The position numbers were made by a program, and so were the translations under genes. Shown here one piece after another: positions 38,089-63,958 of a stretch of 64,000 nucleotides of DNA (position 1 is the first letter of the stretch; each line of letters opens with the position of its first letter). The stretch is from contig JAFTIE010000113.1 in assembly GCA_017457065.1 (NCBI GenBank), positions 7,120 through 71,119 on the forward strand, read 5' to 3'. The notes beneath the pieces were generated by a model that had not been told where the DNA came from, did no database searches, and saw only the letters and a program-made list of their open reading frames with translations. This stretch comes from Lentisphaeria bacterium. GTDB lineage: Bacteria; Verrucomicrobiota; Lentisphaeria; Victivallales; Victivallaceae.

Positions 38089-38117
38089 TTGCAAGTATTT
38101 CAATTCAGTGGTATATT
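38089..38117 (+). promoter_or_regulatory. Sigma70-like promoter with an upstream T-tract, candidate promoter of the Tad locus
   Basis: It reads TTGCAA (38089-38094), a 17-nt spacer, then TATATT (38112-38117). A T9 run (38070-38078) in UP-element position precedes it. It lies about 570 nt upstream of cpaB1. Confidence 0.5.
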
Positions 38118-38272
38118 ATTGATGTTGCAGTATTTGAGGAGGTATTGCCTTCCTTATTTTCTGCAGATATCGATCGACAGATGTTGTGTTTCAGCAGATG
38201 TCGCCTGAAAGGGACCAACCGGATTCTTTTTATTGCGGTCCTCAGGTGACAGCAGACAGCCCCCATGTTTGC

Positions 38273-38290
38273 GGGGGGGGGAGAGAGAGG
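38273..38290. repeat. Homopolymeric G9 tract followed by a (GA)4 run
   Basis: The sequence gcGGGGGGGGGAGAGAGAGG was read directly. The G-run spans 38273-38281. It lies inside the non-coding leader of the Tad locus. Confidence 0.9.
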
Positions 38291-38368
38291 ATGCCGGCAT
38301 CGGCTTCCCGGCGGGGTCTGGAATACAATGTTTGAGAACATATTTTTATTTGGACGTTATCAGACAGA

Positions 38369-38400
38369 CCGCATTCAGCAGTTGAAAACTGCAAATGCGG
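38369..38400 (+). other. Strong extended stem-loop in the leader (13 bp in two helices)
   Basis: The sequence is ccgcatt-ca-gcagtt-gaa-aactgc-a-aatgcgg. The outer 7 bp (38369-75 / 38394-400) and inner 6 bp (38378-83 / 38387-92) are fully complementary. No U-run follows. Confidence 0.5.
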
Positions 38401-38598
38401 CTGATCTGTGGATTTCAGGAGTTTTCAGTTGATGGGAACGATGGTTGAAATGACGGCATTAAAGGTGGCGCTTCACGGTATCAGCCAATTACCGGGCGTC
38501 TCCTTTGTGTTTTTCTCTCTTTTCGGAGGGGCGGGAAATTTTTCAGCCGCAGAGAAGGTGTCGTCATTTTCCCGGGAAACTGTATTGCTCCCATGGAA

Positions 38599-38640
38599 CA
38601 GCCGCAGGATCCGGCAATGGATCTCTGCGGCTGCTTTTGT
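38599..38640 (+). terminator. Terminator-like hairpin 46 nt upstream of the cpaB1 start (leader attenuator candidate)
   Basis: cagccgcaggatcc (38599-38612) pairs with ggatctctgcggctg (38619-38633) as 9 bp, a 1-nt bulge, then 5 bp. The loop is ggcaat, and cttttgt follows. An upstream copy of the 5' arm, cagccgcagag (38544-38554), is perfectly complementary (11 nt) to the 3' arm. Confidence 0.5.
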
Positions 38641-38685
38641 ATCTCCGGATGAACTTGAAAGAACTTTTTTCAGAGGACGCAAAAA

Positions 38686-39459
38686 GTGAAAAATATTATT
38701 TCCATTATCCTGACTGTTGTATTGACCCTGACGGTTGTCTGGGCGGCAGGCAAACTGAAAGACACCGGCTGGGTGAGCCGGGGAGGCAATGTGCCGGTGG
38801 TCAGCGCCGCAAGAGATCTGACCGCAGGAGAGGTCGTGAAAAAAGAGGATATCGCAGAGCGTTCCGTTCCCCGGAAAGGAGTGCCCGCACAAGCGATCTT
38901 GTGGAACAAATCAGCTCTTGTTGCAGGGCAGGAGGTGTTGAGATCCGTTGCCAAAGGAGACTATATCATGCTGAACGATGTGGGCATGAACAAAAATTTG
39001 AGCAGGATCGTCGCTCCGGGGGAGTGGGCAGTGCCCGTCACTTTTGCAGACCGCAGCCTGCTTCAGTTTATCCAGCCGGGAGATGAAATCGCTGTCTGGG
39101 CGACCTTTACCGATGAAAAAATTGTCCGGAATCCGTCAGAAAAATCAATTTCTGTGAAAGAAAAGACAACTTCAGTCCTCTTTCCTTGTGTAAGGGTCCT
39201 GGATGTGGGGACAGGAGACGGAAAACCAAGGGAGGAAAAAATGCGCAATAAAACGATCATCGTTTCTCTGCCGCCGCAGCAGGTCGGGTTGCTGATCGCC
39301 GCACAGGGCAGAGCTGAATTGTTTCCCGCTTTGCGCACCCCGAATGATACAGCGGCAAGGAACCGTATGGAACCGGGGATCGTTACAGATGAAACTTTTG
39401 CCGGGTTGCGCCGGGGCTTGAAAACTGTTAAAGTCCACGGAGCATCAGGGAGCAGGTGA
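38686..39459 (+). CDS. cpaB: Flp pilus assembly protein CpaB/RcpC (paralog 1)
   Basis: It has a GTG start with GAGGA upstream and the N-terminal TM IISIILTVVLTLTVVWAA. The SAF-like VPVVSAARDLTAGEVVKKEDI is present. It is colinear with the second CpaB at 48335 (VEVVAAARNLAPGDILTEGSF; both end ...ELFPALR / ELYPALR). Confidence 0.75.
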   Translation: MKNIISIILTVVLTLTVVWAAGKLKDTGWVSRGGNVPVVSAARDLTAGEVVKKEDIAERSVPRKGVPAQAILWNKSALVAGQEVLRSVAKGDYIMLNDVGMNKNLSRIVAPGEWAVPVTFADRSLLQFIQPGDEIAVWATFTDEKIVRNPSEKSISVKEKTTSVLFPCVRVLDVGTGDGKPREEKMRNKTIIVSLPPQQVGLLIAAQGRAELFPALRTPNDTAARNRMEPGIVTDETFAGLRRGLKTVKVHGASGSR

Positions 39460-39599
39460 GATCATGAAAAATCTCCGCAGATGTTTTATGATCCGGCAAT
39501 CGGAAGAATATGGGAAACCGACCGGCGGCAGAATGTGCCGGAGGGCGTGAGGATCGGGACTTTCCGCAAGGAAAATCCGGGAAGAGCAGGGAATCGTAT

Positions 39600-41087
39600 A
39601 TGGAATCCAGAGTTCAGATAAAAATCATAAGAGGTGCTTGCAGCAGACGGGAGTTTGATATCTCTCTTCCCTGTCTGATCGGCAGATCTCATAATGCAGA
39701 CATCCGGTTGACTGACCCGGATGTTTCAGGCCGTCATGCTCTCCTGACGGTTGATGACTCCAAGGTTCTGTACATCCGGAATTTAAGTAAAGGCTCAACA
39801 ATTGTCGGCGGAAAAACTCTTGCCCGGGGCGGGGAGATCCCCGTTACAGCGCAAACTCTTGTGTCTCTGGGGGAAAGCGTTGAGATCCTCATTGCCGGAG
39901 GCGATGTTTTCGGGATCCCGGAGGATGGGGTGATCTTTTTCAATGATCCGGAAGATATGACCGCCGGAGCTGTTTCTCATTGCGGGAAATCCTGTGTCGA
40001 AACAGAGACTTTGAGCTTCTTTGTGGAACACAGAGTCGATAGGGCACACGCCGGTGTGAAAGGTGGGATGGCGCGTTTTCTGAACACTGCCGGAAACACT
40101 CTGCGGAAACAGCTTCCCGGTGTCATGCGGGGAGTTCTGCTGCTCCTGATCGCGGCTGTGTGTTCAGGTGCCGGGTACTTTGCATTTGCAGCCATTCAGG
40201 AGAATGAACTTTCTTATTCCTTCTCACGCCGGGATCTTCAGGCGGATGAGATCATTTCACCCGTCAAAGGTCCGGAATGGGGCATATCGTTCTATTTTCC
40301 CCGGCACGCTGAGATGAAAGTGGTCAGGAAGAGTGACTCCTTTGCGGCAGAAACCAGGATCGGTTCCTTGTGCAGTATTCCCCTGCATCTGGAATATCAC
40401 GGCAGATCTTCTACCGGTATCCTGTTGAGTACAAAGGAAAAGGTCTTTGAAAAGTGGATCAAAGAGACCGCCGGAAAAGAGTGGCAGTTCGACCGGATCT
40501 CCAGAGTCAGGTTTTTCGGGGAAAACAACGGATTTCCCTATCTGACGGCAGAGTACAGACGTAAGGTCTCTTCGGAATACCGGTTCGGTATCGCCACCAG
40601 TCTGAAATTCCGGGATCGGCAGTTCATTTTTTTGAAAGAGATCCCCCTCAAAGAAAGAAAAAGAGGAGAGAAACTCTTGAGAACAGAAACCTTTTTCAAA
40701 GTTGCTCCGGAGATCATAAGCAGATATTGGGATGTGAATGTCCCTCTTCTGGATCTCCCCGCAGAAGACATGCTGGAGCGCTCAAAAAAAATGCTGTCAA
40801 GAGTGACTCCCGGAGTCTGGGGGCAGACCTATCAATTACTGGTGAGTTCCCTGATCAAAGCCCACAGTGAAAAGAACAGTGAAACCGCTGACCGGGCGGA
40901 ACTTCTGCTGGCAGATATGAGAAAGATGCAGCGGCGTTGGCTGAATGCGCAAAGGATCGACTGCCTGAATTCCATTGCCAAAGGGGATCATAAGACCGCT
41001 TACAGGGTCAAAAAAAACTGTGAACGTGTTTTTTCAGATAAAAACGATCAATGGGCACATTTGATCAGAAATAATTTTGGAGAATGA
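39600..41087 (+). CDS. FHA-domain single-pass membrane protein
   Basis: The N-terminal FHA is CLIGRSHNADIRLTDPDVSGRHALLTV...IRNLSKGSTIVGG. The TM is GVLLLLIAAVCSGAGYFAFAAI. A ~300-aa extracytoplasmic domain is paralogous to that of the 54230 protein. The start is taken at MESRVQIKII. Confidence 0.75.
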   Translation: MESRVQIKIIRGACSRREFDISLPCLIGRSHNADIRLTDPDVSGRHALLTVDDSKVLYIRNLSKGSTIVGGKTLARGGEIPVTAQTLVSLGESVEILIAGGDVFGIPEDGVIFFNDPEDMTAGAVSHCGKSCVETETLSFFVEHRVDRAHAGVKGGMARFLNTAGNTLRKQLPGVMRGVLLLLIAAVCSGAGYFAFAAIQENELSYSFSRRDLQADEIISPVKGPEWGISFYFPRHAEMKVVRKSDSFAAETRIGSLCSIPLHLEYHGRSSTGILLSTKEKVFEKWIKETAGKEWQFDRISRVRFFGENNGFPYLTAEYRRKVSSEYRFGIATSLKFRDRQFIFLKEIPLKERKRGEKLLRTETFFKVAPEIISRYWDVNVPLLDLPAEDMLERSKKMLSRVTPGVWGQTYQLLVSSLIKAHSEKNSETADRAELLLADMRKMQRRWLNAQRIDCLNSIAKGDHKTAYRVKKNCERVFSDKNDQWAHLIRNNFGE

Positions 41088-41167
41088 CCGGTGAAAAGTT
41101 TCTTCTTAAACACATCATGGTTGCATGAAGAACCGCTTTCAACGGCTGTTCATGGGGAGTGAGTCAG

Positions 41168-41836: not shown

Positions 41837-42361
41837 ATGAGTTTCCCGGTATTCTTCAGCATAGTCACAGTCTGGCTGGTTGTTTTAGGCTGGTATGACT
41901 GTTATTACCGCAGATTGCCCAATGTTTTGACATTGGGCGGTGCTGCGGTGTTTCTGGCTGTACACATTTTTAATGGCAGTATGACCAGCAGTTTGCTTGG
42001 AGGATTATTGGGATTTGCGTTTTTGCTTCTCCCCTTCCTGATGCGAGGCGCAGGAGCGGGAGATGTCAAAATGTTCGGAGCAGTGGGGATCCTCACCGGA
42101 TTCCCGCTGATCCTTTCTGCAATGTTCTGGTCAACTGTTTTCGGTTTGATCCTCGGCGTCATCATGGTGATCGCCGGAAAAACCGATGCGGCAAGATTGA
42201 AACATTTGTGGAGATGCTGTACTGACCGGAATTATGACCGGAAAGCCGGGAAAGAAGCTTTGCCGGAAAAACAGTCGGAAAAAGTGCGGATCCCATTCGG
42301 CGTGGCGATCGCCGCCGGATGCTGGACAGCGGAGGTGTTGTATGTTTTATCCGCCCGCTGA
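41837..42361 (+). CDS. cpaA: Prepilin peptidase CpaA/TadV (A24 aspartic peptidase)
   Basis: 174-aa polytopic membrane protein with YYRRLPNVLTLGG and the GxGD-type motif GAGAGDVKMFGAVG. Confidence 0.75.
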   Translation: MSFPVFFSIVTVWLVVLGWYDCYYRRLPNVLTLGGAAVFLAVHIFNGSMTSSLLGGLLGFAFLLLPFLMRGAGAGDVKMFGAVGILTGFPLILSAMFWSTVFGLILGVIMVIAGKTDAARLKHLWRCCTDRNYDRKAGKEALPEKQSEKVRIPFGVAIAAGCWTAEVLYVLSAR

Positions 42362-42977
42362 ACTGAAAAAAGATCGGGGTTCTGTTATGCTTGAGGCGAT
42401 CATCTGTCTGCCTTTTTTGTTTTTACTGATCTTTTTGACGGCACAGCTGGCACATATTTCATTTTGCCGTCAGGTGGTCCAGTATGCGGCTGTTGCCGCC
42501 GGAAGGGCAACGATTTCCTGTGCCGACAGTGAAGAAAAAGATGCCGCAGAAGCTGCCGCACGCAGGATCTGTGCACTGGTCTCTTACACAAATGAAGGCG
42601 GTTCTCCATTAAATAGAGAATGGTTGAAAGATAGAGAAAAAAATGTTCTTATCAGCGGTACCGGCGGGGCTGATCCTCAAGGAAAAAATGATAAAATGAA
42701 GGAAGTAACTGTCAGCCAAACCGGAGTTGGCAGCAAAATTGTAACTGTGAAATTCAATGTGCCGATGATGTTCCCCATAGCCAATGATGTGCTTTCGGGA
42801 AGTTCGGCATTTATTAAATATATCTGGCAGAGCGAAAAGTATAGGGAAAGAGAAATAACCTATAAAAGCGAACTCTTTCCCCACTTTCTGATAACCGGAA
42901 CAACGGCAGTTTTCAAACCGGCAAGTGTCGGAACTTCTGCCGTTGATAATGTGAATGATTATAAAAGATGGAACTGA
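42342..42977 (+). CDS. tadE: TadE-like pseudopilin 1
   Basis: The start is at MFYPPAELKKDRG with GGAGG upstream. SVMLEAIICLPFLFLLIFLTAQLAHI follows (TadE N-terminal pattern, same G/SVMLE site as the pilins). Confidence 0.65.
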   Translation: MFYPPAELKKDRGSVMLEAIICLPFLFLLIFLTAQLAHISFCRQVVQYAAVAAGRATISCADSEEKDAAEAAARRICALVSYTNEGGSPLNREWLKDREKNVLISGTGGADPQGKNDKMKEVTVSQTGVGSKIVTVKFNVPMMFPIANDVLSGSSAFIKYIWQSEKYREREITYKSELFPHFLITGTTAVFKPASVGTSAVDNVNDYKRWN

Positions 42978-42978
42978 G

Positions 42979-43605
42979 ATGATCCGTTCAGCACAAAACA
43001 CAACAAAAAGATTACTGGTCGGGGAGTCCGGCATTGCCATGCCGGTTTCCCTCCTTGTCTTTTTGTTTCTGACCTTTGTCTGCATGTCAGTCTTTGCCCT
43101 GGGTGAAGCGATCCGGGTCAGGACCGAACTGCAGTACAAGGTGGACAATGCCGCCTATGCCGCCGCATTGGTGCAGGCGGATTCTCTCAGCCGTATCGCC
43201 GTTTTGAACCGGGCTTTGGCATGGACCTATGCCCAGACCAACAACCGCCAGGTCAATTACATCATGAACCGGTGGCTTTCTGAGACTTACGAAACTTTTA
43301 TCCGGGATGCCGATGCCATGGAAAAAAACATATTGAAGGCAGCAGCGCTGCATGTAACCTTCATAATCTGGCAATACGGCGTTCCGACAGAGATAACCCC
43401 CGGAGACATACAAGCAGCTACATTGACGGAACAGATGATTTTTGTTACGGATTGGCACTTGCACCGGATATCGACACCATCAAAAACGCTCTCAAAAACG
43501 CTTTCGAAAACGCTCTTTCTCTGCAGCTGCACGGACGCCTTTGCAGCTCCGGAGAGCGTGGCATCAAAGTTCTCCAGGAAGAGGTTATCGACACTGTTTC
43601 CTTGA
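42979..43605 (+). CDS. tadG: TadG-like pseudopilin, N-terminal part (ORF interrupted; see 43452-44504)
   Basis: GESGIAMPVSLLVFLFLTFVCMSVFALGEAIRVRTELQYKVDNAAYAAALVQ fits the TadE/G-like N-terminal domain. From about 43440 the ORF reads implausible low-complexity sequence (SKTLSKTLSKTLFLCSC) while the other frame becomes protein-like. Confidence 0.55.
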   Translation: MIRSAQNTTKRLLVGESGIAMPVSLLVFLFLTFVCMSVFALGEAIRVRTELQYKVDNAAYAAALVQADSLSRIAVLNRALAWTYAQTNNRQVNYIMNRWLSETYETFIRDADAMEKNILKAAALHVTFIIWQYGVPTEITPGDIQAATLTEQMIFVTDWHLHRISTPSKTLSKTLSKTLFLCSCTDAFAAPESVASKFSRKRLSTLFP

Positions 43606-44504
43606 ATGAGTACGAGGCCATTTCTGCCCAGTTGTTTGCCGGTCATAAAAACATAATAAACATGAGCAAAGCAGCAGAAGAGATCAAAAAAAGTATGGAT
43701 GGCCGGATCCGGCAGGTCGTTCAAACCATGCTTGAGGGAACGGAGAGCTGTGTTTTTTCCACCGATCTCTCAGAATTCCTTGAAAAGAATATCGATGAAA
43801 GCGACGTACTGAAACGCTATGATATTCAAACAGGGGGCAGTTTGCGATCCGATGCTTACTGGCAAAAAACATGGTGGCAGAAAGATTCAGATACGCTGGC
43901 GCATTCCTACTCCGGCGAAAAGGTTCCCGAATTGCAATGGATCGGCTATGCTGTTTCCTGGGTTTGCAACATTCACGGGCACACCCCCACATTACGTGCT
44001 TTTTCAGAGAAGCGTATAAGCACTCCCGGACAACATCCGGATAAGACTCGCTGGCAAACTGAAAATTGGAACGAATTACCTGAAGCTGAAATCTTCAGAC
44101 TGAAAGAAAATTTTTTCAGCAAAGATGGGGCTGTCGTTGTCGCCGCAAAAACGCCGATCCCGGATCTTTTCGGCAATGTTTTCGGCAAAAACAAATTCCT
44201 GAATTTCCGTGTTGACGGTAATTTATGGGCTGTTTCAGCCGCAAGAGCCGGATACCGTATCCCCGGAGAAACAAGGTATGAAAACAGCAAGTTTTCAAAT
44301 GAAGATAAATGGAACCTTTTTGTGGATGATTGGGAACCCATGTTCCTGCCCGTAAGCAGATGCTGGAAGTCCTGGGATGGTGAAAAATTTACCGGCGATG
44401 GTGCTTATAAAGTTTTAGAGGGAGTCGCAGAGAAACTCGGTATCAATATTTCTGAAAAAGGTCTGAACCTGAACGAAAAAGTTGATCTGGATATGCTCCA
44501 CTGA
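43452..44504 (+). CDS. Probable continuation of the TadG-like protein in the -1 frame
   Basis: 350-aa ORF (TTG at 43452; the frame is open further upstream). It overlaps the previous ORF by more than 150 nt and has no independent RBS or signal sequence. Confidence 0.5.
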   Translation: MALAPDIDTIKNALKNAFENALSLQLHGRLCSSGERGIKVLQEEVIDTVSLNEYEAISAQLFAGHKNIINMSKAAEEIKKSMDGRIRQVVQTMLEGTESCVFSTDLSEFLEKNIDESDVLKRYDIQTGGSLRSDAYWQKTWWQKDSDTLAHSYSGEKVPELQWIGYAVSWVCNIHGHTPTLRAFSEKRISTPGQHPDKTRWQTENWNELPEAEIFRLKENFFSKDGAVVVAAKTPIPDLFGNVFGKNKFLNFRVDGNLWAVSAARAGYRIPGETRYENSKFSNEDKWNLFVDDWEPMFLPVSRCWKSWDGEKFTGDGAYKVLEGVAEKLGINISEKGLNLNEKVDLDMLH

Positions 44505-44511: not shown

Positions 44512-45177
44512 ATGACAATGCGGATGAGGAATTTATACAAAGATAACAAAGGTTCGGTAATGCTGGAAACGATTCTGGTGTTGCCGATGTACCTTGTGTT
44601 TATTACGGTGATTTTCCTCGCCGGTGAACTCTCTTTGTACCGCAATTTGCTTTTGCAAATGGATCAGCATGATCTGTGGGCTTTGGGGGCAAAGAGTCCG
44701 ACAAAAGTCGATACGGCAGAAAAATTGTTCGGGTCAGTGGGGAAAAGAGATTTTATGGGAGATTTTGAGATAACCGCGAAAGATCAGGATGAAAAAGTTC
44801 TCTCTACCAATGGTTGGTGGAAAAAAAATGCTCTTAAAAACAATGCTGTATTGAAAGTGCCCGGTTGGATAAAATCCATCCGGGTTCTCAGTGGACTTAT
44901 GGGACAGAACTCTCATAAAGCATTCAACTACAGCAACGGATTTGAATTACGGAAAAATGATGAAAAACTGGTGCTGTATTCACGCAACAGCGAAGAAAAT
45001 TGGCGGGGAGCCTGCGAAGGCGCAGACCTGTGTGCGGGCAGTGTTCCCCTGTGGGTGACAGTCGCCAATGAAAATACTGTCGGTTCGGCAGATGGACCGG
45101 AAAAGGTATTGGGAGAGGCGATCTTGCCCTATGCTAATGGGAAATCTGTGGAAAATTACAGGTCATATTGGGATTGA
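44512..45177 (+). CDS. tadE: TadE-like pseudopilin 2
   Basis: MTMRMRNLYKDNKG is followed by SVMLETILVLPMYLVFITVIFLAGE, the same processing-site pattern. Confidence 0.65.
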   Translation: MTMRMRNLYKDNKGSVMLETILVLPMYLVFITVIFLAGELSLYRNLLLQMDQHDLWALGAKSPTKVDTAEKLFGSVGKRDFMGDFEITAKDQDEKVLSTNGWWKKNALKNNAVLKVPGWIKSIRVLSGLMGQNSHKAFNYSNGFELRKNDEKLVLYSRNSEENWRGACEGADLCAGSVPLWVTVANENTVGSADGPEKVLGEAILPYANGKSVENYRSYWD

Positions 45178-45179
45178 AG

Positions 45180-45500
45180 ATGAAGAAAAAATTTTATATA
45201 TTTCTGTTTGTGATACTTGCCGCCTTCCCCCTGAGGGCAGAAGAGCGCAATGGATGGGGGATTTCAGGCGAATTGCCCTACAGTTACCCTTATGCCAGAA
45301 CTTGGGTCGGCGGAAAAATGCGGCAGGCAGGCTGGAAGTGTATCAAAGCATTTACCAGTGGGAAGAAAAATGAAATAGAACACAGCATCTGGGAAAAAGG
45401 TACTTCAAAGCTCCAGATGATGTTGTGGCGGATCGCCAGTGATAAAACCGGGTATTCGCAGCGCAGTTTGACCAAAAGTAAGACAGATAAAATATTATGA
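45180..45500 (+). CDS. Small secreted protein of unknown function
   Basis: The signal peptide is MKKKFYIFLFVILAAFPLRAEE. Its stop overlaps the kinase start (ATGA). Confidence 0.5.
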   Translation: MKKKFYIFLFVILAAFPLRAEERNGWGISGELPYSYPYARTWVGGKMRQAGWKCIKAFTSGKKNEIEHSIWEKGTSKLQMMLWRIASDKTGYSQRSLTKSKTDKIL

Positions 45501-53308: not shown

Positions 53309-54205
53309 ATGACAACAGCATATTTGATGACATACGCTCTGATATTCGGAGCTGTATTCAGTCTGATTATTTTTGTCAGCACATTGAGAAAAAACAGAAA
53401 CCTGTCACAGTACAGGAATTTGCCGGTCTACTTCTATATGTTTCAGGGCGCCATTGCCTTTTTTTCCCTGGAAATCGGATCGTTGCTGGTAAAAGGCAAA
53501 AACAAGTCGAAAATGGAAAGTTTACTCAGGCAGTCTGCCCTTGCGCTTCAGGTCCAGGATGTTTACGGCGCTGCGATCGTTATGGCTTTGGTCGGCGGTA
53601 TTGTCGGCGGCGTATTTGTATCCCTGCTGAAGATGCCTTTGCCGCTGAAACTTCTTCTGGTGATCATATTCGCTGTTATCGGCGGGTTCATGCCCTTCGT
53701 CAGTCTCCGGCAGATCTGCCAGAGACGCACCGAAGAAATTTTAAGGGATCTGCCCTTTTTCATAGATATCATTTCCTCCTCCATGAACGCCGGTTTGGAC
53801 TTCAATGCTTCAGTTGCCCATCTTGCTGATATAAAAAGCAAGGAAAACTCCGTATTGAAAGATGAGTTCATGTACTACCTCAAAGAGGTCCAGTTGGGGA
53901 AATCCAGGGCAGAGGCTTTGCGTGCTATGGAAAGAAGGATCTCTGTGAAAGAGTTCAGCCGGTTCATTTATGCCATTCTCCACGGCATAGAAACCGGCGT
54001 TTCGATCGTCGAAGTAATGAAGGTACAATCTGTGGAGCTCCGCCGGTCCCGTGCTTCTTCCGCCGAACAGAAGGCGGCAGAGGCTCCTGCCAAGATGATC
54101 CTTCCCATGGTCGTTTTCATTTTTCCTTCCATGTTCATCATTATTTTTACCCCTATCCTGATAAGGATGAAAGATTCTCCTCTCTTTTCATTTCTTAAAT
54201 GGTAA
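53309..54205 (+). CDS. tadC: TadC-like inner-membrane platform protein (T2SS F domain)
   Basis: 298 aa with DLPFFIDIISSSMNAGLDFNASVAHL, RAEALRAMERR and C-terminal TMs. Confidence 0.75.
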   Translation: MTTAYLMTYALIFGAVFSLIIFVSTLRKNRNLSQYRNLPVYFYMFQGAIAFFSLEIGSLLVKGKNKSKMESLLRQSALALQVQDVYGAAIVMALVGGIVGGVFVSLLKMPLPLKLLLVIIFAVIGGFMPFVSLRQICQRRTEEILRDLPFFIDIISSSMNAGLDFNASVAHLADIKSKENSVLKDEFMYYLKEVQLGKSRAEALRAMERRISVKEFSRFIYAILHGIETGVSIVEVMKVQSVELRRSRASSAEQKAAEAPAKMILPMVVFIFPSMFIIIFTPILIRMKDSPLFSFLKW

Positions 54206-56800: not shown

Positions 56801-59127
56801 GTATTCTTAACAGCCTGAGCAGCGCCGTTGAAAACAGAAGAAAAGAACTGCACATCGGGATCGAACATAACGGGATCCTGCTGTATGAAGTATATACAGA
56901 AGAATTTACAAAAGAGATCTCCATCGGCAGAAGTTCCCAATGTGATTGGAGTTTGAGCCAGGTCGATGAATCTGTCAGCAGCAAACACGCTTTGATCTCA
57001 TTGCGCAAAGACAGCTTCTACCTTACAGATCTCGGGAGCCGCAACGGCATGTATTTTCAGGCAAAGCGCATCGCGGAAAAGAAACTTGTTCCCGGGGACA
57101 GGATCAGTTTGGGGGAGTGTGTCGTTTTTGTTGATGATGAATCAAAAAAGTTGAAAAAACTCTCTCAGATGAATCAGATCGAATATGTGAACGGCAGTGG
57201 ACGCAAGGTCCTGTATGATATTTCCAAGCCTGAAACGATCATCGGTTCGGCATCCGATGCAGACATCCGGATAGAGGATCAGCTGATCTCCTCCCGCCAC
57301 GCCGTCATATCTTTGCGGAACGACGGGAGCTGCTGGCTTAAAGATAACGGCAGCCGCAACGGAACAAGTGTCAACGGCAAAGAATTGCCCGTAGGGTCTG
57401 AACGGATGCTTCAGGAAGGGGATATCATTACCATAGCCTATCTTGAAATGAAATTTCTTGATGCCGCTGTTCTGCATGAAAGTTCCAAACTGTTGACTTC
57501 GATCGTGATCGCCGGCATAACGATCCTTGTCGTTCTGGGCGGATATATCGGTTACATGCAGCTGACACCTTCGGCAGATGCGATCATCGCTGCGGCAAGG
57601 CGGGAGGCGGCTCAACTGGATTTCTCTGCCGCAGAAAAACTGTTGAACGATTCAAAACTGGCACGCAATGCAGACGATGCTGCTTCTGAACGGGAAACTT
57701 TGTTCAGGCAGATCGCAATATGGAAAAAAACCATACACATCTGGGAAATGGTGAAGAAAGATCTTGTCAGAAAACAATTCAATACGGCAAACAGCAATCT
57801 GTCAAGCATCAATCACTCCGATTTGAACACCTGGAACTGGAACAATGATGCCGCATTTGTTGAAAAAAGCAAAGCTCAGGCAGTAAAACAGATCCTTGAC
57901 TGCTGCTCCGGTGCAGATTCTCTTCTGAAACAGGAAAATGAGTTGATTGCCCGCATTGAAAAACAGAAAATGGAGCTCTCTTTTGCCATGCGCAGCGGAG
58001 AACAGTATAAGAATGAAAAATATATGCAGTCACTGCTTCAGGAAGGTTCCCGGCAGCTGCAGCGTCTTGACCGTGTCATGCAGGAACACAGATATCTCAA
58101 CAATATCATCAGTTTGCTCAGTCATGAAAAGCCCGATTATCAGCGGGTGATGACAGATTTGACGAAACTTGCAGAAACCGGGCAGGAGGCTGTTCAAATA
58201 AAAGCCAAGCGTATACTGATCCCTGTACGGAATCTTGCCAGAGAAACCAACCGGATGCTTGAAGCGGTCAGCAAGGTCTGTGAACTTGATTTTGCTGCTG
58301 TTGAGTCATTTTCTTTGAACTTACCCGATTCCGTTGATTATTCGTCAGAAAAAAATATCGCTTCATTGAAACAGGCTCTGATCAACCGTGTCAAGCGGCT
58401 CAAAGATTCCTCTATTCAAATTTCGATCCTGTACCGCAATTTGAAGGCGCAGGGCGTTGCAACCGGGAAAAAGGTTGCCGCAGTGGAGCATTTTCTTTCA
58501 GACGAAACGATGAAACAGGTTTATTCCTTTGATATATTCAATTACACCATTCCGCGCATTTCCCGGAGAGAACCTTCCGGTGTGTATGATCAGATGGTGG
58601 GCTATGAGTTCATGTACGACTATTTGAAAAATATCCATGCGGATATGATGACATTGAATATTGAAGATCTGCCATTCAAACCTCAGCTCTATCTTGTCCG
58701 GACGATTTTTACAGATATCAACCGTTTTCTGACCTATGTTGACCGGGATGAAAATTTGTGGTTCCAGAATGGAAAGCTGAATACCTTTATTGAGCACTGC
58801 AGGACCATCCCTGCTTTGAGAGAAAAAATCATTTCCCGTTGCAGGAAGCAATTTTCTGTGAAAGATAAAAGAACACAGCTTCTGGCAAAAGGGATCGTTT
58901 TGTACCTCAGCAGCATCAACGGTTCTTCCAAAGAGGAGAATGAAAAATTTGCAAATGAGTTCCAGACTCTTACCAGAGCGATCCAGAAAAAGGACCGTGA
59001 GTTCTCACGCTCCATGCCCGAAGAGCAAATCAAACTGCGGGATGAAATAATTGCAGCAGGATTCCCCGGTGATCCTATCGTAAGAAAAATGTGGCGTATG
59101 CGCCCCACTGAAAAGCGGAGAAAGTAA
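56797..59127 (+). CDS. Double-FHA single-pass membrane protein
   Basis: FHA-a is ISIGRSSQCDWSLSQVDESVSSKHALISLRKDSFYLTDLGSRNGMYF. FHA-b is TIIGSASDADIRIEDQLISSRHAVISLRNDGSCWLKDNGSRNGTSVNG. The TM is LLTSIVIAGITILVVLGGYIGYM. A ~520-aa largely helical C-terminal region follows. It has a 4-nt overlap upstream. Confidence 0.8.
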   Translation: MSILNSLSSAVENRRKELHIGIEHNGILLYEVYTEEFTKEISIGRSSQCDWSLSQVDESVSSKHALISLRKDSFYLTDLGSRNGMYFQAKRIAEKKLVPGDRISLGECVVFVDDESKKLKKLSQMNQIEYVNGSGRKVLYDISKPETIIGSASDADIRIEDQLISSRHAVISLRNDGSCWLKDNGSRNGTSVNGKELPVGSERMLQEGDIITIAYLEMKFLDAAVLHESSKLLTSIVIAGITILVVLGGYIGYMQLTPSADAIIAAARREAAQLDFSAAEKLLNDSKLARNADDAASERETLFRQIAIWKKTIHIWEMVKKDLVRKQFNTANSNLSSINHSDLNTWNWNNDAAFVEKSKAQAVKQILDCCSGADSLLKQENELIARIEKQKMELSFAMRSGEQYKNEKYMQSLLQEGSRQLQRLDRVMQEHRYLNNIISLLSHEKPDYQRVMTDLTKLAETGQEAVQIKAKRILIPVRNLARETNRMLEAVSKVCELDFAAVESFSLNLPDSVDYSSEKNIASLKQALINRVKRLKDSSIQISILYRNLKAQGVATGKKVAAVEHFLSDETMKQVYSFDIFNYTIPRISRREPSGVYDQMVGYEFMYDYLKNIHADMMTLNIEDLPFKPQLYLVRTIFTDINRFLTYVDRDENLWFQNGKLNTFIEHCRTIPALREKIISRCRKQFSVKDKRTQLLAKGIVLYLSSINGSSKEENEKFANEFQTLTRAIQKKDREFSRSMPEEQIKLRDEIIAAGFPGDPIVRKMWRMRPTEKRRK

Positions 59128-59129: not shown

Positions 59130-59999
59130 ATGCTTGTTGAATGGCAAAATTATATAGACGTGTTCTCCTTTACCCATGTGGGAAAGGTCAGAAAGAACAA
59201 TGAAGACTCTGTCCTTGAAATGAAAGAGTGCGGTTTTTTCGCAGTTTCAGACGGAATGGGCGGCGGAAACGCCGGTGAGATCGCCAGTCAGATGATCGTT
59301 TCAAATCTGAAAAGTGCACTTGAAAACTCCTCCGGAGTTCCCGGGGAACGGGAGGGGTGTATTATCAGAGCCGCCAATCAGGCAAATTATCAGATCAATG
59401 ATTTTGCGGCAGAGCACCATTACTCCTCCATGGGGGCAACTCTTGTTTGCTGCCTGTTGAATCCCTGGTATCCTTCTATTGCAACGGTCCTCCATGCCGG
59501 GGACAGCCGTCTCTACCGTCTGCGGGATGATGCACTGGAGTGTCTCACCGAAGATCATACCGTTGCGACCGCATCAAAGGTGGCAGAAAGCAAACTGGCA
59601 CCCATGTTTCGCGGAGTTCTTACCAATGCACTCGGTACCGGAGTGGATTTTTTTCTGGAAAGGACAAGCATCAATGTGCAGCGTGACGATTTGTACATAT
59701 TCTGCTCCGATGGTTTATCCCGCATGGTCAGTGATCCTGAGATCCAGCAGATATGTGTGCCTCTGGTCAACTCCCCCAGCAGGGAGATATGTCAGTCATT
59801 GATCGAGACCGCATTGGATAACGGCGGACGTGATAACGTTTCTGTTATCGTCCTGAAAATCAAAAAACTCTGGAAAGAGTACCAGCCCTCAAGAAAAGAG
59901 GCCGAAGCCGAAGCCAATGCCCAAACACAAAATTTGATGGATCTTTCAGAAACGCCCCAAACTGAGATTGAAGATGCAGCTTTGGCAAGGAACAACTGA
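59130..59999 (+). CDS. PP2C-family Ser/Thr protein phosphatase
   Basis: Motifs are NEDS, FAVSDGMGGGNAGEIAS, GDSRLYR, IFCSDGLS and DNGGRDNVSVIVLK. Confidence 0.9.
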   Translation: MLVEWQNYIDVFSFTHVGKVRKNNEDSVLEMKECGFFAVSDGMGGGNAGEIASQMIVSNLKSALENSSGVPGEREGCIIRAANQANYQINDFAAEHHYSSMGATLVCCLLNPWYPSIATVLHAGDSRLYRLRDDALECLTEDHTVATASKVAESKLAPMFRGVLTNALGTGVDFFLERTSINVQRDDLYIFCSDGLSRMVSDPEIQQICVPLVNSPSREICQSLIETALDNGGRDNVSVIVLKIKKLWKEYQPSRKEAEAEANAQTQNLMDLSETPQTEIEDAALARNN

Positions 60000-60735
60000 G
60001 CATATCGCTGTCGGAAATTTGTGGCAGAAAACTCAGGATGATATAAAGCAGATTTTTCATCCTGAGTTTTTGCGTCCCCGGCGTTTTCTGCCCCGTCAGT
60101 ACCTGGCGCTCTTTCAGGATGGCACGCTGCTGACGGCGGTCGGTTCCGGGAACTGGGATCTTGTGGCTGAAAAAATGTTCTGGCACAGATTGAGCGGAGG
60201 ACACCCCGGTGTGCAGCATCTGTTTCAGAGTTTCGGCGCTGCCGCCGGTAACGGAAAGTTTGTGCTCTGGGGGCACGAAATATCGGAACTCTTGGGCCGC
60301 GGGAGCTCAGCAGCGGTTTACCGGACAACTGACGGGTATGCACTGAAGGTCGTCGATTTCTCCGCCAGGGAGAAACTGCGCCGGGAATATTCCTGCCTTG
60401 CCGGAATAAAATGCCGCAATATCGTCAGGGCTTTTGATTTTTATGAATCACCGGAGGGGGGCGGGATGCTGCTTGAAACACTTGCTCCGCCTTCCTGCGA
60501 CAGAGCGGGATATCTCAGCGGGGTGAAGCATCTGCACCGGGCAGGGATATGTCACGGTGATATACGTTATACAAATCTCGGGTCTGATAAAAATGGAACG
60601 GCAAAACTTTTTGATTTAGGCAGCAGTTTTTATGGGACATCCGGAAAAATGCAGAAAGAAGAAGCAGAATTGAAGTTGCTGCTTGAGAAATTTAATTGTT
60701 CAGAGCGGAAAAATGACAAACAATACGGGAAATGA
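59968..60735 (+). CDS. Minimal protein-kinase-like protein (about 170-aa kinase core, no recognisable activation segment/APE)
   Basis: It has GRGSSAAVY (G-loop), ALKV (Lys), LHRAGICHGDIRYTNL (HxD...N) and KLFDLGSSF (DxG). The N-terminal ~85 aa have no recognisable family. The start is uncertain and overlaps the PP2C 3' end. Confidence 0.6.
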   Translation: MKMQLWQGTTEHIAVGNLWQKTQDDIKQIFHPEFLRPRRFLPRQYLALFQDGTLLTAVGSGNWDLVAEKMFWHRLSGGHPGVQHLFQSFGAAAGNGKFVLWGHEISELLGRGSSAAVYRTTDGYALKVVDFSAREKLRREYSCLAGIKCRNIVRAFDFYESPEGGGMLLETLAPPSCDRAGYLSGVKHLHRAGICHGDIRYTNLGSDKNGTAKLFDLGSSFYGTSGKMQKEEAELKLLLEKFNCSERKNDKQYGK

Positions 60736-63700
60736 AACAGATACAGCCATAACTGTTTTTGCTGATGACAGCATAAAGGAGTTGCTGAAATCAGGAAAAA
60801 TTGAAGATATACAGAAAATTGTGCAGGAGGAAGAACCTTCACTTTCTGTCAATGCTTCCTGCTTTTCCTGGCAGGCAGGGCAGATCGTTGGTAAATATGA
60901 GATCATCAGAAGGATCGGCAAGGGAGGAATGGGGGTTATTTACCTTGCCCGCCATACTCAGCTTGATACCCTGCGTGCATTGAAGGTTTTGCCTGCAGAA
61001 AGTGCAGAAGAAAATCCTGCATTTGCAGAAAGGTTCATCCGTGAAGCAAGGATCGCCTCCAAGATCCGGCATCCCAATGTCGTTGAAGTTATGGACGTGG
61101 AAACTGATCCCCTTCTCAAGGTTACCTGCATCGTGATGGAATATGTGGATGGAGGCAGTTTGCGTCAGATCCTGAAGGGGCAGGGCAAACTCAATATGGA
61201 GCAGGCCATTGTTACGGTCCAGGGCGTTGCCGCCGCATTGTGTACCGCAGCTGAACACGGGATCGTTCACCGGGATATCAAACCTGACAATATCATGTAT
61301 ACCAAACGGGGCGGGGTCAAACTCGCAGACCTTGGTATTGCCAAAAAAGATGATGAAGAGGATAACCTTACAAAGACCAATGTGATGATGGGGACACCTG
61401 CTTATCTTTCCCCTGAGCAGGTGGAAAATCCCAAAGCTGTGGATATCCGCAGCGACATTTACAGTCTGGGGGCGACCTTCTACGAAATGCTGACCGGTCA
61501 GGTGCCGTATCCGGGGAAAAGCTCCTTGGATATTTTGCGGAAGATCTTCTCGGAACCGGTCCCGGATCCCCGTTCCGTGGATCCGCAGATCCCGGGGGAG
61601 ATCGCTTCTGTCGTAATGAAAATGATAGCCAAAGACCCCCGGAAACGTTATCAGACCCCTTCCCAGGTGCTTGAGGCACTGGGAAAAATCATTCCGGAGT
61701 TGTCTGATACCGATATCCAGCAGGTCGTAAAGAGCATCATAAGCACCGGAAATGATGGCACAGGAACTGAAAATGCAAACAGCAGTTCCGTTCTGACCGG
61801 AACAGTATGCCGTTTGCGGAGATGGGAACGGCTGAAAAAAACAGTTCTTCCGGCAATGGGGGGCTGTCTGTTTCTGGGGATATGTGTGACAGCAGCGGTA
61901 TTGTTGAGCAACGGGAAAGTGCCGCTGAAAAATGAAGTTGCTCAAGAGAGCACAATAAGGAGCTCTGCTCCCCCGGCGGTACTGCATTCACTCCATGTGA
62001 AAACGGCTCCTGCCGCAACTTTGCGCCTGATTGCCGGGGATGGGCAGGTCCTGACCTATGCCGGGAGCAGAAGCGGCGAGTTCAACGTTTCCGGATTGAC
62101 TGCCGGGATCTATGAGCTGGAGATCTCATGCCAGGATCACTTTACTTATAAGCATAAACACCGGATACCTGCTGACGGCACACTGGTGCTGCCGCTGAAA
62201 CCGGATGTCCGAACCGTTACGATCGTGGGAATTGCCGGCACAAAACTTGAACTGCAGTATCCGGACGGCAGGGGAAAGATCTTTTCCATCCCTGCAAGCG
62301 GGGTCATAAAAATCAAAAACTTGAAAAAGGGGAGTTATTATCTGAAAAGCTCACACCCTGAATACCTTTTGAATGAGAAACGTTTTGTTCTCGCAAATGA
62401 TTTGAAGCTTTCCATACAGATGGAAAAAATCTTCAAGAGCTTTTCGGTGGTGACTTTGCCGGGAAGTCAGGTCACACTGCTGCAGAACGCACAAGTGAAA
62501 TTCAGCCGTAAAACAAACAGCAAGGGGGAGAATACCTTTTCAAAAATCAAAAGCGGCGTTTATGAGCTGATGATTTCCGCACCGCATTACAAAACTCATA
62601 CCTCCATCCTTCACATTGAAAAAGATACCTCTATGACGGTTCCCTTGGAAAAAGCCCTTTATTCCATCACTGTTTACGGAAGAACCGGGACGGATGGAAA
62701 GCTTTTTTCCGGGACGCAGCTGATGAAAAAGTTTACCGTGCCTTTATCCGGCTATATCGTGATAAACAATGTTGAACAGGGGAAATACAGACTTGATTTT
62801 TCCTGTGAGGGGCATATTGCACAAAGTCGCGGCATAGAACTGAATGAAAATACATCTTTACAGATCGATCTGGCGAAACGTTCCGATGCCAAAGCTGCCG
62901 CAGCTGATGCACTCTTCTCAAATACCGGAACAGTGAATTTTTATTTGTCTGCTTCAGATGAATTGCTCAAATTCATTCAGAAACATGGAGTGGAAATAAA
63001 AATCGGTGACGGCGCATGGAGCAGAGAAAAGGCATTTCCCATCACAAAAAGAATTGAAGCCGGAGAGTTCCCGGTCTCTCTTCGGGGCAAGGGCATATTG
63101 CCCTATTCCGGACAGAGTGTCCGGATCGCTCCTGAGAGGAACACGGATTTTCTTATGGAGGTCAAACCCAAACCTTCAAAGGTCCTCTTTTCTTCCAACC
63201 GCTCTGATGCGCTCTTTACACTTGGCGGCAGCATTTACCGGGCAGATGAAGAAGTGCTCATAGAACCCTTCAGGGAATATACTGTTTCTTCAAGCGCCCG
63301 GGGGAAAACTGTTGTAAAGAAATTCCGCAGCTCCTGCCCCGGAGAAAGGTTGAAACTTGAACTGTTCTTTGCAGAAAATATCCATCCGATGCAGGGCAGG
63401 TACGAAAAAGGAATGGCGCTTTTCAAAGCAAAAAGATACAAAGAAGCGCTGCCTGTTCTGCTGAGTGCCGCAGAGGCGAAGCATCTTGAGGCGGTGCTGC
63501 AAGTTGCCCTCATTTACGAAAAAGGATTGGGAATGTGGTTTTCCGACAGGAAAAAAGCACTGTTCTGGTATCACAAAGCCGCAGAACAGAAGAATGTTGC
63601 CGCTGCGGTCAAAGTCGCTGATGCGATTTTCGCAGACGATTATGAAGCTCCGGCATCCAGGATGGTTGATTTCTATTTGCAGGCAGTGGAAGCAAAAGAT

Positions 63701-63958
63701 CCCGGAATCACCTATAAAGTTTCCCTGATATATAAAAACGGATTCAGAGAGATCAAACCGGACGAAAACAAAGCTCTTTATTATCTGCAAAAGGCCGCCG
63801 ATTCCGGGTTCCCCGGAGCCATGTATGATTTGGGTATCAGATATGAAAAGGGGCAGGGAGTGCCTTTCAACAGTCAGACAGCTTTGTTCTGGATCAAAAA
63901 GGCTGCAGATAAAGGATATGAACAGGCTGTAGAATATTGGAACCAGTTAAAGCATTGA
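60713..63958 (+). CDS. Hanks-type Ser/Thr protein kinase with one TM, tandem beta-sandwich repeats and C-terminal Sel1 repeats
   Basis: Kinase motifs are GKGGMGVIY, RALK, HRDIKPDNIMY, DLGIAK and LSPEQ. The TM is GGCLFLGICVTAAVLL. Repeated G.Y.L.[IS]S modules occur (GIYELEISCQDHF, GSYYLKSSHPEY, GVYELMISAPHY, GKYRLDFSCEGH). Sel1-like units include LQVALIYEKGLG and AMYDLGIRYEKGQG. The start may be 60683 or 60713. Confidence 0.85.
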   Translation: MTNNTGNETDTAITVFADDSIKELLKSGKIEDIQKIVQEEEPSLSVNASCFSWQAGQIVGKYEIIRRIGKGGMGVIYLARHTQLDTLRALKVLPAESAEENPAFAERFIREARIASKIRHPNVVEVMDVETDPLLKVTCIVMEYVDGGSLRQILKGQGKLNMEQAIVTVQGVAAALCTAAEHGIVHRDIKPDNIMYTKRGGVKLADLGIAKKDDEEDNLTKTNVMMGTPAYLSPEQVENPKAVDIRSDIYSLGATFYEMLTGQVPYPGKSSLDILRKIFSEPVPDPRSVDPQIPGEIASVVMKMIAKDPRKRYQTPSQVLEALGKIIPELSDTDIQQVVKSIISTGNDGTGTENANSSSVLTGTVCRLRRWERLKKTVLPAMGGCLFLGICVTAAVLLSNGKVPLKNEVAQESTIRSSAPPAVLHSLHVKTAPAATLRLIAGDGQVLTYAGSRSGEFNVSGLTAGIYELEISCQDHFTYKHKHRIPADGTLVLPLKPDVRTVTIVGIAGTKLELQYPDGRGKIFSIPASGVIKIKNLKKGSYYLKSSHPEYLLNEKRFVLANDLKLSIQMEKIFKSFSVVTLPGSQVTLLQNAQVKFSRKTNSKGENTFSKIKSGVYELMISAPHYKTHTSILHIEKDTSMTVPLEKALYSITVYGRTGTDGKLFSGTQLMKKFTVPLSGYIVINNVEQGKYRLDFSCEGHIAQSRGIELNENTSLQIDLAKRSDAKAAAADALFSNTGTVNFYLSASDELLKFIQKHGVEIKIGDGAWSREKAFPITKRIEAGEFPVSLRGKGILPYSGQSVRIAPERNTDFLMEVKPKPSKVLFSSNRSDALFTLGGSIYRADEEVLIEPFREYTVSSSARGKTVVKKFRSSCPGERLKLELFFAENIHPMQGRYEKGMALFKAKRYKEALPVLLSAAEAKHLEAVLQVALIYEKGLGMWFSDRKKALFWYHKAAEQKNVAAAVKVADAIFADDYEAPASRMVDFYLQAVEAKDPGITYKVSLIYKNGFREIKPDENKALYYLQKAADSGFPGAMYDLGIRYEKGQGVPFNSQTALFWIKKAADKGYEQAVEYWNQLKH

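Follow-up and report, generated by a model that had tools for sequence, protein, structure and literature searches.

The 64,000-nt stretch of DNA analysed here (positions 7,120–71,119 of contig JAFTIE010000113.1, assembly GCA_017457065.1; the whole stretch is referred to below as the window) comes from an uncultured gut Lentisphaeria bacterium and carries a chromosomal operon, at least 25 genes long, that is predicted to build a Tad/Flp (type IVc) pilus machine with an FHA-fused motor. We consider it probable, although with moderate confidence, that the operon encodes a Tad machine resembling the Kil apparatus of Myxococcus xanthus and placed under a threonine-phosphorylation switch encoded among the same genes. 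The writers and the eraser of such a switch are present in the operon with their catalytic residues intact and are co-inherited with it in one sub-clade, and in a survey of 80 loci both FHA open reading frames (ORFs) and kinases were found more often near FHA-fused motors than near plain ones. Phosphorylation-gated assembly of the machine would be a reasonable proposal, because the signalling genes overlap or tightly adjoin the tad genes in four species-level lineages.

From 38686 to 63958 the forward strand is occupied by an uninterrupted one-strand train of 21 genes, one of them split by a frameshift, with a possible 54-aa ORF also lying inside it at 48169–48333 (Table 1). The distances between the genes range from −154 to +109 nt. 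Overlaps of 4 nt are found at three junctions (p106/STK1, cpaF/tadB and FHA_rep/FHA2x), and overlaps of 23–26 nt follow each other along the PP2C, mini-kinase and STK2 genes. The Tad set encoded comprises two CpaB proteins, two Flp-like prepilins, CpaA, two TadE proteins, a TadG-like protein, CpaC, CpaF, TadB and TadC. The train also contains FHA domains, five in all and one of them on CpaF, along with two Hanks kinases of the receptor type, a truncated kinase and a PP2C phosphatase. Beyond the end of the window the operon extends for about another 2.1 kb, as can be read on contig L004 (L004:13246-16092; related loci and contigs are designated by L numbers), where STK2 is followed by three more genes, the last of which encodes a soluble FHA-kinase fusion, and then by convergent glycoside-hydrolase genes. 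Counted with this extension, the FHA domains of the full unit number six and its complete Hanks kinases three, in addition to the mini-kinase and a single PP2C. Sequence of the identical type (99.98% identity) is present in gut-type contigs from several metagenomes, including L001.

Domains were assigned by Pfam profile searches and membrane topology by a hydropathy scan. Neither Flp-like protein gave a significant match to Flp_Fap, and TadE2 matched Pfam TadE only at a non-significant E of 0.37; these three were assigned by their size, hydrophobic segment and the common KGSVM[LI]E(Y) prepilin motif. The flp1 gene was called at the equivalent site in L001, L006 and L089, Flp2 matches an ORF at the Flp position of L010 (3e-13) and gives a weak alignment to the L008 protein that Pfam assigns to Flp_Fap, Flp_Fap is matched by the genes that occupy this position in L007 and L008, and tadE2 has an orthologue in L009 (3e-11). 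TadE1 is a 196-aa protein according to the gene caller in L001. CpaB1 and CpaB2 are paralogues (34% identity, E 2e-50). Judged by these components, CpaA would mature the two Flp-like pilins together with the TadE/TadG-like minor pilins, the inner-membrane platform is predicted to consist of TadB and TadC, with CpaF as the single putative motor, and CpaB with the CpaC secretin is predicted to span the periplasm and the outer membrane. No ParA/MinD-type (TadZ/CpaE) Pfam match was obtained for any ORF of at least 150 aa in the window, although a copy may lie in another part of the genome. A frameshift divides the TadG-like gene into 42955–43605 and 43452–44504, as it also does in L001; the gene is intact in the relatives L089 and L006 (94% and 68%, respectively), where it encodes 494–498 aa; both halves match a single 497-aa ORF in L009. 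A 12-nt tandem repeat of 3.1 copies (43480–43516) lies close to the frameshift junction, and the split could be an assembly error, a pseudogene or a switch.

The phosphate-binding site is canonical in half of the FHA domains of the full unit. In the FHA domain of CpaF, which adjoins an acidic linker that is free to vary among orthologues, the GR and SRxH residues are invariant in 19 Lentisphaeria orthologues; FHA_TM1 carries GR and SGRH, and the first FHA domain of FHA2x is likewise canonical. In the second FHA domain of FHA2x the Arg is replaced by Ser (Gly-Ser in 5/6 Lentisphaeria sequences aligned, Gly-Leu in L010, Gly-Arg in Archangium and Oligoflexia), in the FHA-kinase it is replaced by Tyr, with the Gly-Tyr pair conserved, and in FHA_rep a species-specific change has converted the His to Gln.

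Every FHA accessory protein and every receptor kinase has a single transmembrane (TM) segment following the cytoplasmic domain, and no TM segment was detected by the same hydropathy scan in CpaF, PP2C or the mini-kinase. In FHA_rep, the 54230 protein, the FHA domain is followed by an acidic linker of about 430 aa, the TM segment (527–545), and a periplasmic part made of a PsbP/DcrB-like beta-sandwich and a helical bundle. This periplasmic part is homologous to that of FHA_TM1 (E 9e-14). Since FHA_TM1 and FHA_rep are thus paralogous, as are CpaB1 and CpaB2, the leading cpaB1-FHA_TM1 pair, which is absent within 10 kb upstream of cpaF in L006 and L089, looks like a lineage-specific duplication. 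The FHA_rep linker contains six 24-aa repeats, GEEATAATRFVEELLQKETxPDAx, with a DNA period of 72 nt (54717–55122). The copy number of this array varies: the protein of L005 (L005:3662-6088) has 808 aa and two repeats fewer, and that of the sister species at 94% has 984 aa (L089:13503-16457). In L006, the 68% relative, four degenerate copies of an E-x-T-x-x-T-[RK]-[FY] core are retained in surrounding sequence that is unrelated, and all FHA_rep orthologues share the motif ET..[LMV]QTR[IML]AS..E[IM]N directly before the TM segment. The threonine motifs of FHA_rep show the behaviour of short linear motifs, and they are candidate phospho-acceptor or FHA-docking sites.

The two bitopic families to which these proteins belong, with one and with two FHA domains, always follow tadC in the Lentisphaeria loci inspected that have the flank, with FHA_rep truncated in L007, and they seem to occupy the place that TadZ-based positioning has in the canonical systems. 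The periplasmic domain of the one-FHA family was modelled by AlphaFold2 (AF2) with a pLDDT of 90.5 as a PsbP/DcrB/EagT6-type beta-sandwich with a helical bundle after it, its best Foldseek match being PsbP 2xb3 (E 4.4e-6). For the two-FHA family, the periplasmic domain of 525 aa was modelled as all-helical (pLDDT 93.5), and Foldseek found no match to its fold in the PDB (best E 0.31); sequence searches of the PDB gave zero matches for both domains. PrgH/YscD-like or PilN/PilO-like periplasmic domains, which were considered for these FHA-TM proteins, were discarded on the basis of the Foldseek results. Homologues of the FHA_rep periplasmic domain numbered 3 in a single-sequence word-indexed search and 29 when a profile of orthologues was used. 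FHA2x belongs to a large family of the Planctomycetes–Verrucomicrobia–Chlamydiae (PVC) group, comprising 164 clusters at E<=1e-30, the members of which are named merely 'FHA domain-containing protein' in Lentisphaerota and Kiritimatiellia.

Both receptor kinases and the FHA-kinase retain the complete set of Lys, HRD, Asn, DLG and SPE motifs. STK1 consists of an N-terminal (SSVSAG)x3 tail, which corresponds to an 18-nt tandem repeat at 45524–45583 (3.3 copies, 97% matches), the kinase domain, a long charged coiled-coil-like segment, the TM segment (478–496) and a Sel1-repeat ectodomain. In STK2 the kinase domain is followed by a Thr/Ser-rich juxtamembrane segment, the TM segment (381–399), beta-sandwich repeats of CarboxypepD_reg/PEGA-like type and three Sel1 repeats. 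The metal-site motifs DGMGG, DG and DN can be read in the PP2C sequence, which matches NCBIfam Stp1/IreP at 4e-51 and yet stays under the curated cut-off. The mini-kinase is built of an N-terminal extension of about 100 aa, a kinase N-lobe, a catalytic loop and the DLG motif, and stops about 35 aa past the latter, without an activation segment and without a C-lobe. Across four orthologues, with identities as low as 22%, there is no variation in the Gly of its G-loop, the Lys, the Glu, HGDIR..N or the DLG Asp, and the C-terminal shortening is common to all of them; because of this conservation the mini-kinase appears to be an old, selected, minimal kinase-like protein rather than a fragment. 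A weak match to Bud32 fits the minimal-kinase layout. The protein was seen in the Tad context only (the window, L089, L006, L009 and L093): a first metagenome scan gave zero matches, and a profile scan returned one true orthologue (L093) and ordinary full-length kinases.

Most of what an earlier note had read from the letters of this DNA thus stands. Almost every assignment in its Tad inventory and its list of domains is borne out by the Pfam searches, which recovered the FHA, kinase, PP2C and most of the Tad domains but failed to do so for the two Flp proteins and TadE2. The membrane topologies that it proposed agree with the hydropathy scan, TadZ is indeed missing from the 64-kb window, and the writer/eraser pair it described is complete, with the catalytic residues kept in the kinases and in PP2C.

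The nearest named relatives of the motor, among the matches listed, are metagenome-assembled genomes (MAGs) labelled Lentisphaeria or Victivallales; the scan of genome contigs contained, again among the matches listed, no relative above 59% identity, while 94% relatives exist in metagenomes. PP2C and the mini-kinase accompany the tad genes in loci with 94% (L089), 68% (L006) and 56% (L009, L093) CpaF identity; a receptor kinase is found in L089, L006 and L009, and the FHA-kinase in L089 and L006. The in-operon set of kinase, mini-kinase and PP2C is confined, among the loci sampled, to the sub-clade of the window (5 loci), and it was not found elsewhere in these loci or in the literature searched. 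A core of cpaB, cpaC, FHA-cpaF, tadB, tadC, the one-FHA and two-FHA genes, flp, cpaA, tadE and tadG is kept at 54–59% motor identity (L007, L008/L011, L010) and in the more distant Lentisphaeria loci L090 and L091. The module of FHA-cpaF, tadB, tadC and the one-FHA and two-FHA genes is thus conserved across Lentisphaeria, and analogous layouts occur in Myxococcota and Oligoflexia. The earlier note had described the machine as hard-wired to phospho-signalling; this is true of the sub-clade and is not a property of the system type, because five FHA-rich Lentisphaeria loci are devoid of kinase and PP2C genes within 10 kb.

The tad operon of L091 is headed by a gene for an FHA-sigma54-activator protein with a helix-turn-helix domain (L091:2778-4199), which lies directly upstream of cpaB; neither a kinase nor a PP2C gene is present nearby, and in that locus the FHA theme thus reaches the operon head as well. 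Several relatives encode a second CpaF-like ATPase that lacks an FHA domain (L089:1-485, L009:19120-20178, L093:10458-11489, L032:14559-17873). In L089 this ATPase is encoded upstream of flp, and in L009 and L093 its gene comes downstream of the mini-kinase; no such second ATPase is present in the window, where the region upstream of flp is occupied by cpaB1 and FHA_TM1.

A neighbourhood survey of the kind that the earlier note had proposed was made on 80 species-representative CpaF loci from the genome scan (from the matches listed; a sample, not a census). An extra FHA ORF was found near 9/23 FHA-fused motors and 2/57 plain ones (Fisher p = 1.3e-4) and a Hanks kinase near 5/23 and 1/57, respectively (Fisher p = 6.7e-3). 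A PP2C turned up near 1/23 FHA-fused and 0/57 plain motors. The loci rich in FHA accessory genes belong mainly to Lentisphaeria, to Myxococcota MAGs (L032, and L055 from Archangium), to the deltaproteobacterial MAG L065 and to the Oligoflexia MAG L088; the beta- and gammaproteobacterial class III loci sampled have the FHA domain of the motor itself and no extra FHA proteins.

The comparison with Kil, which the earlier note had put forward with some uncertainty, proved to be apt. Kil is a Tad-like machine for contact-dependent killing of prey (Seef et al. 2021, PMC8460266; Nat Commun 2025, PMC12075869) that contains the FHA-fused ATPase KilF and the FHA proteins MXAN_3104, KilD, 4648 and 4649 and has no TadZ (PMC8460266). 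An upstream phosphorylation cascade was put forward by its authors from the FHA proteins alone, by analogy with the type VI secretion system (T6SS); the kil genes are arranged in two clusters, no kinase or phosphatase is among the genes listed for them, and Kil-like systems were considered to be restricted to Myxococcales, Bdellovibrionales and Bradymonadales (PMC8460266). The later paper on the Kil pilus mentions neither FHA domains nor kinases (PMC12075869). Tip complexes have been reported as restricted to Myxococcota.

The locus described here shares with Kil the single ATPase that has an FHA domain at its N-terminus, the absence of TadZ, a Flp or Flp-like pilin with TadE/TadG-like minor pilins, and several FHA accessory genes adjoining the ATPase and platform genes. 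In Archangium (L055) the product of the gene following kilF has the layout of FHA2x, with two FHA domains, then a hydrophobic segment and a C-terminus that is helical. Unlike the two kil clusters, the window has one operon that includes three Hanks kinases, the mini-kinase and PP2C when followed to its end, and its host, unlike Myxococcus, is a gut anaerobe of the PVC group that is not a known predator. The Kil machine assembles within seconds of prey contact, and we know of no kinase, phosphatase or phospho-target that has been identified in the Kil field. All two-FHA proteins at the KilD position that we inspected have a TM-like segment after the second FHA domain (L055:2088-4367 and L032:14545-16728 in Myxococcota, L088:1045-3429 in Oligoflexia); KilD itself is given as a cytoplasmic multidomain protein in the published table. 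Orthology of the two-FHA proteins to KilD is not claimed, the BLASTP similarity being limited to the FHA domains, and hhalign gave a probability of 22% for the C-terminal family of the PVC two-FHA proteins against three KilD-like C-termini. In a neighbour-joining tree of the ATPase part the FHA-fused motors come together near Bdellovibrionota, with bootstrap values below 10 at the deeper nodes; the Lentisphaeria motor clade alone is supported (100/100), and its placement relative to KilF has no bootstrap support. The locus is thus a Tad system that would work like Kil and is architecturally of the same kind, and its nesting within a Kil clade is neither supported nor contradicted by the tree. 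CpaF proteins with the FHA-IDR-3HB-NTD-CAD organisation have been described as class III and are mostly betaproteobacterial (Nat Commun 2025, PMC12019362). The motor of the window has this build, with the FHA domain, the acidic variable linker and the ATPase.

In the H1-T6SS of Pseudomonas aeruginosa the PpkA kinase, the PppA phosphatase of the PP2C type and the Fha1 scaffold constitute an established threonine phosphorylation pathway (cited in PMC8460266). The window resembles it in that the cluster of the machine includes a membrane-bound Hanks kinase whose sensor domain is periplasmic, together with a PP2C as eraser and an FHA protein as reader, and the proposed logic of signal, phosphothreonine, FHA docking and assembly would be similar as well. 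In contrast to H1-T6SS, no T6SS core genes (TssA-M, Hcp, VgrG) were found at the locus, which contains Tad components only; the putative reader domain occurs as a fusion on the motor and on three membrane proteins instead of being one soluble Fha1, and several kinases and a mini-kinase are predicted. Lacking the T6SS core, the locus could at most work like the PpkA/PppA/Fha1 pathway and is not a member of it. With canonical Tad loci (Aggregatibacter tad, Caulobacter cpa) it shares a Flp or Flp-like prepilin, TadV/CpaA, RcpC/CpaB, RcpA/CpaC, TadA/CpaF, TadB, TadC, TadE and a TadG-like protein; it differs from them in having no TadZ/CpaE in the window and no recognisable TadD or RcpB, in the duplication of cpaB, in the FHA-fused motor and in at least nine extra signalling or accessory genes. 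An actinobacterial-type fhaA-fhaB-pstP-pknAB division operon lying beside tad was also considered and rejected, the genes being interleaved with tad and rodA/pbpA-type genes being absent.

If assembly is controlled by threonine phosphorylation, STK1 and STK2 would sense an envelope or contact cue via their Sel1/beta-sandwich ectodomains, autophosphorylate and phosphorylate threonines, with the juxtamembrane segment of STK2, rich in Thr, and the E-x-T-x-x-T-[RK]-[FY] motifs conserved in the FHA_rep linker as the candidate sites. The canonical FHA domains of CpaF, FHA_TM1 and FHA2x (the first one) would then dock on these phosphothreonines, and the motor would thereby be recruited to, or activated at, the TadBC platform. 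The soluble FHA-kinase encoded past the window end may amplify the signal, as FHA-kinases of the Chk2/Rad53 type do, PP2C would reset the system, and the mini-kinase, which is probably ATP-binding, may be a conserved fourth component. The logic would be that of the PpkA-PppA-Fha1 switch of the Pseudomonas H1-T6SS, moved onto a Kil-like Tad machine.

Several observations weigh against this phosphorylation switch. Three of the six FHA domains are substituted at one canonical phosphate-contact residue, and two of these substitutions are kept in orthologues; no kinase or PP2C gene is present within 10 kb of the core in five distant Lentisphaeria loci (L007, L008/L011, L010, L090, L091); it is conservation alone that marks the candidate phospho-acceptor motifs as such; and, with its TadG-like gene frameshifted, the machine of this strain may be impaired. 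The substituted sites and the kinase-free loci support a rival reading, in which the FHA domains would be phospho-independent structural modules that surround the platform as a ring or scaffold in the cytoplasm, as in the type III secretion system (T3SS), where the FHA-like domains of YscD/PrgH function without phosphopeptides. The kinases and PP2C would in this case control something other than assembly, for example growth or the homeostasis of the envelope, and would have entered the operon by capture in a single sub-clade. This is the main alternative, and we regard it as unlikely. That all five FHA domains in the window also match Pfam Yop-YscD_cpl, those of CpaF and FHA2x above its cut-off, and that no kinase is listed in the Kil clusters also speak in its favour. 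A scaffold, however, does not readily account for the full GR/SxxH/N set in the FHA domain of CpaF (19/19 orthologues), in FHA_TM1 and in the first FHA domain of FHA2x, nor for the kinase, PP2C and mini-kinase genes, which overlap or adjoin the tad genes, are translationally coupled to them and co-travel with them across 56–94% identity. The restriction of the mini-kinase to this Tad context and the absence of cell-wall and division genes, unlike in the actinobacterial fhaA-pstP-pknAB operon, also argue against this alternative.

A role of the phospho-module mainly in expression or on substrates (pilins, the secretin pathway or a transcription factor) in place of motor recruitment, with the FHA accessory proteins serving as an alignment complex irrespective of phosphorylation, appears to be less likely still. 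The FHA-sigma54 enhancer-binding protein upstream of cpaB in L091, by which FHA control there must be at least partly transcriptional, and the 770-nt leader ahead of the operon are compatible with it, but no transcription factor is encoded within the operon of the window and one of the FHA domains is on the motor itself. Decay of the locus, which would leave its dense signalling content without a current role in this strain, is very improbable in spite of the split TadG-like gene, the duplicated cpaB-FHA pair and the His-to-Gln change in FHA_rep, since all the other genes are intact ORFs with conserved motifs, the same sequence was obtained from several metagenomes, and the frameshift, adjoining the 12-nt tandem repeat, could be an assembly error or a switch.

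Table 1. Features of the Tad locus, its continuation on contig L004 and large Pfam-less ORFs elsewhere in the window (numbers after domain names are E-values unless stated otherwise)
Feature	Position	Strand	Evidence and remarks
Sigma-70-like promoter match	38089..38117	+	TTGCAA-17-TATATT with TG; consensus match only, not functional evidence
cpaB1	38686..39459	+	RcpC 6.5e-11, SAF 3.4e-7; N-terminal TM segment
FHA_TM1	39510..41087	+	FHA 1.3e-10; cytoplasmic FHA, single TM (209-227), periplasmic domain
flp1, Flp-like prepilin, 70 aa	41168..41380	+	KGSVMLEY motif, then hydrophobic helix
flp2, Flp-like prepilin, 112 aa	41490..41828	+	KGSVMIEY motif, TM segment
cpaA/tadV prepilin peptidase	41837..42361	+	Peptidase_A24 1.5e-15; five hydrophobic segments
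tadE1 pseudopilin	42387..42977 (ORF opens 42234)	+	TadE 8.3e-7; GSVMLEA motif
TadG-like large minor pilin	42955..44504	+	Tad 1.9e-5, N-terminal part
tadE2, TadE-like pseudopilin	44512..45177	+	GSVMLET motif, TM segment
Small protein p106, ~106 aa	45180..45500	+	Signal-peptide-like N-terminus; no Pfam match; position conserved in L006, L009, L089
STK1, receptor Hanks Ser/Thr kinase	45497..48166	+	Pkinase 6.9e-50, Sel1 7.7e-14
cpaB2	48335..49108	+	RcpC 7.2e-11 and SAF
cpaC secretin, 522 aa	49129..50697	+	Secretin 7e-15, T2SS-T3SS_pil_N 8.1e-12; signal-peptide-like N-terminus
FHA-CpaF motor ATPase	50727..52436	+	FHA 6.5e-19 (residues 24-87), acidic linker, T2SSE 2e-63
tadB platform protein	52433..53296	+	T2SSF 1.3e-10; overlaps cpaF by 4 nt
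tadC platform protein	53309..54205	+	T2SSF 9e-17
FHA_rep, 856 aa	54230..56800	+	FHA 5.7e-9
FHA2x	56797..59127	+	FHA 9.7e-38, two stretches; two FHA, TM (233-251), 525-aa all-helical periplasmic domain
PP2C-type Ser/Thr phosphatase, soluble	59130..59999	+	PP2C_2 1.4e-10, PP2C 3.1e-10, SpoIIE 9.5e-8
Mini-kinase, 253 aa	59974..60735 (or from 59968)	+	Pkinase 1.8e-12, 47.7 bits against a cut-off of 31.7
STK2, receptor Hanks kinase	60713..63958 (ORF from 60683)	+	Pkinase 7.2e-51, Sel1 2.3e-21, CarboxypepD_reg 2.1e-15
50-aa ORF	L004, first gene after STK2		
302-aa putative lipoprotein	L004, downstream of the 50-aa ORF		Lipobox-like N-terminus (FFQGGC), one internal hydrophobic stretch
586-aa soluble FHA-kinase fusion	L004, last of the three		FHA 1.2e-15, Pkinase 8.2e-51
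Large ORF, 990 aa	21299-24271	-	No Pfam match at E<=1e-4
Large ORF, 691 aa	10606-12681	-	No Pfam match at E<=1e-4
Large ORF, 418 aa	8794-10050	-	No Pfam match at E<=1e-4
Large ORF, 464 aa	28080-29474	+	No Pfam match at E<=1e-4

The leader that precedes the operon is a 770-nt stretch without a convincing gene (37917–38685), located between pepF and cpaB1, with the promoter-like site at its head; position 38089, with which the earlier note had the locus begin, is the start of that site. A hairpin followed by a T-run is present in the leader at 38135–38156, and no known riboswitch was recognised in it, the search of the whole window against Rfam at gathering thresholds having returned zero families. 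The G+C content falls from about 0.53–0.55 over positions 1–38000 to about 0.46–0.50 from about 38000, where the locus starts, and the GC skew is clearly positive over all 26 kb of the locus; either the strand or codon bias that comes with a long operon read in one direction or a foreign origin could account for this. Long stop-free ORFs lie antisense to both kinase genes (45572–46741, 389 aa, and 60839–61987, 382 aa, both on the minus strand) and most probably arise as a side effect of the sense genes' codon composition. Elsewhere the window contains housekeeping and carbohydrate-use genes, including those for Rho, CoaE, GH36 and an amylase, along with the four large Pfam-less ORFs of Table 1.

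The density of FHA domains and the fusion of one of them to the motor, which the earlier note had described as going well past a canonical tad locus, are in large part known already: the FHA-fused motor is already known as class III CpaF (PMC12019362), and an FHA-rich Tad system without TadZ is known as Kil (PMC8460266). What is new is the phylum, the single operon with embedded kinases, a dedicated mini-kinase and PP2C, and the two uncharacterised periplasmic domain families. The literature that we searched held nothing on the Tad systems of Lentisphaerae or on the control of a Tad machine by kinases. The locus extends the FHA-rich Tad systems to the PVC superphylum, and it brings to light two conserved periplasmic domains, the PsbP-like one of the one-FHA protein and the large helical one of the two-FHA protein, whose proteins are at present annotated just as 'FHA domain-containing protein' or 'hypothetical protein'. 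For a system of the Kil type it supplies, in several related species, candidate writers (the two receptor kinases and the FHA-kinase), an eraser (PP2C), threonine motifs and the mini-kinase, that is, concrete proteins and residues to examine and a template for finding unlinked kinases in Myxococcus.

A more far-reaching suggestion, which we offer tentatively and hold to be rather doubtful, is that gut Lentisphaeria, and also Kiritimatiellia to judge by the distribution of the two-FHA family, use a phosphothreonine-triggered Tad machine of the Kil type that is assembled on demand where the cell touches other cells or particles, the kinases being the contact sensors and PP2C the reset. If this were true, Kil-type Tad machines would not be confined to predatory Myxococcota and Bdellovibrionota. 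The system would then represent a Tad counterpart of the threonine-phosphorylation switch of the T6SS, and it would reveal the upstream kinases that are missing from the Kil paradigm.

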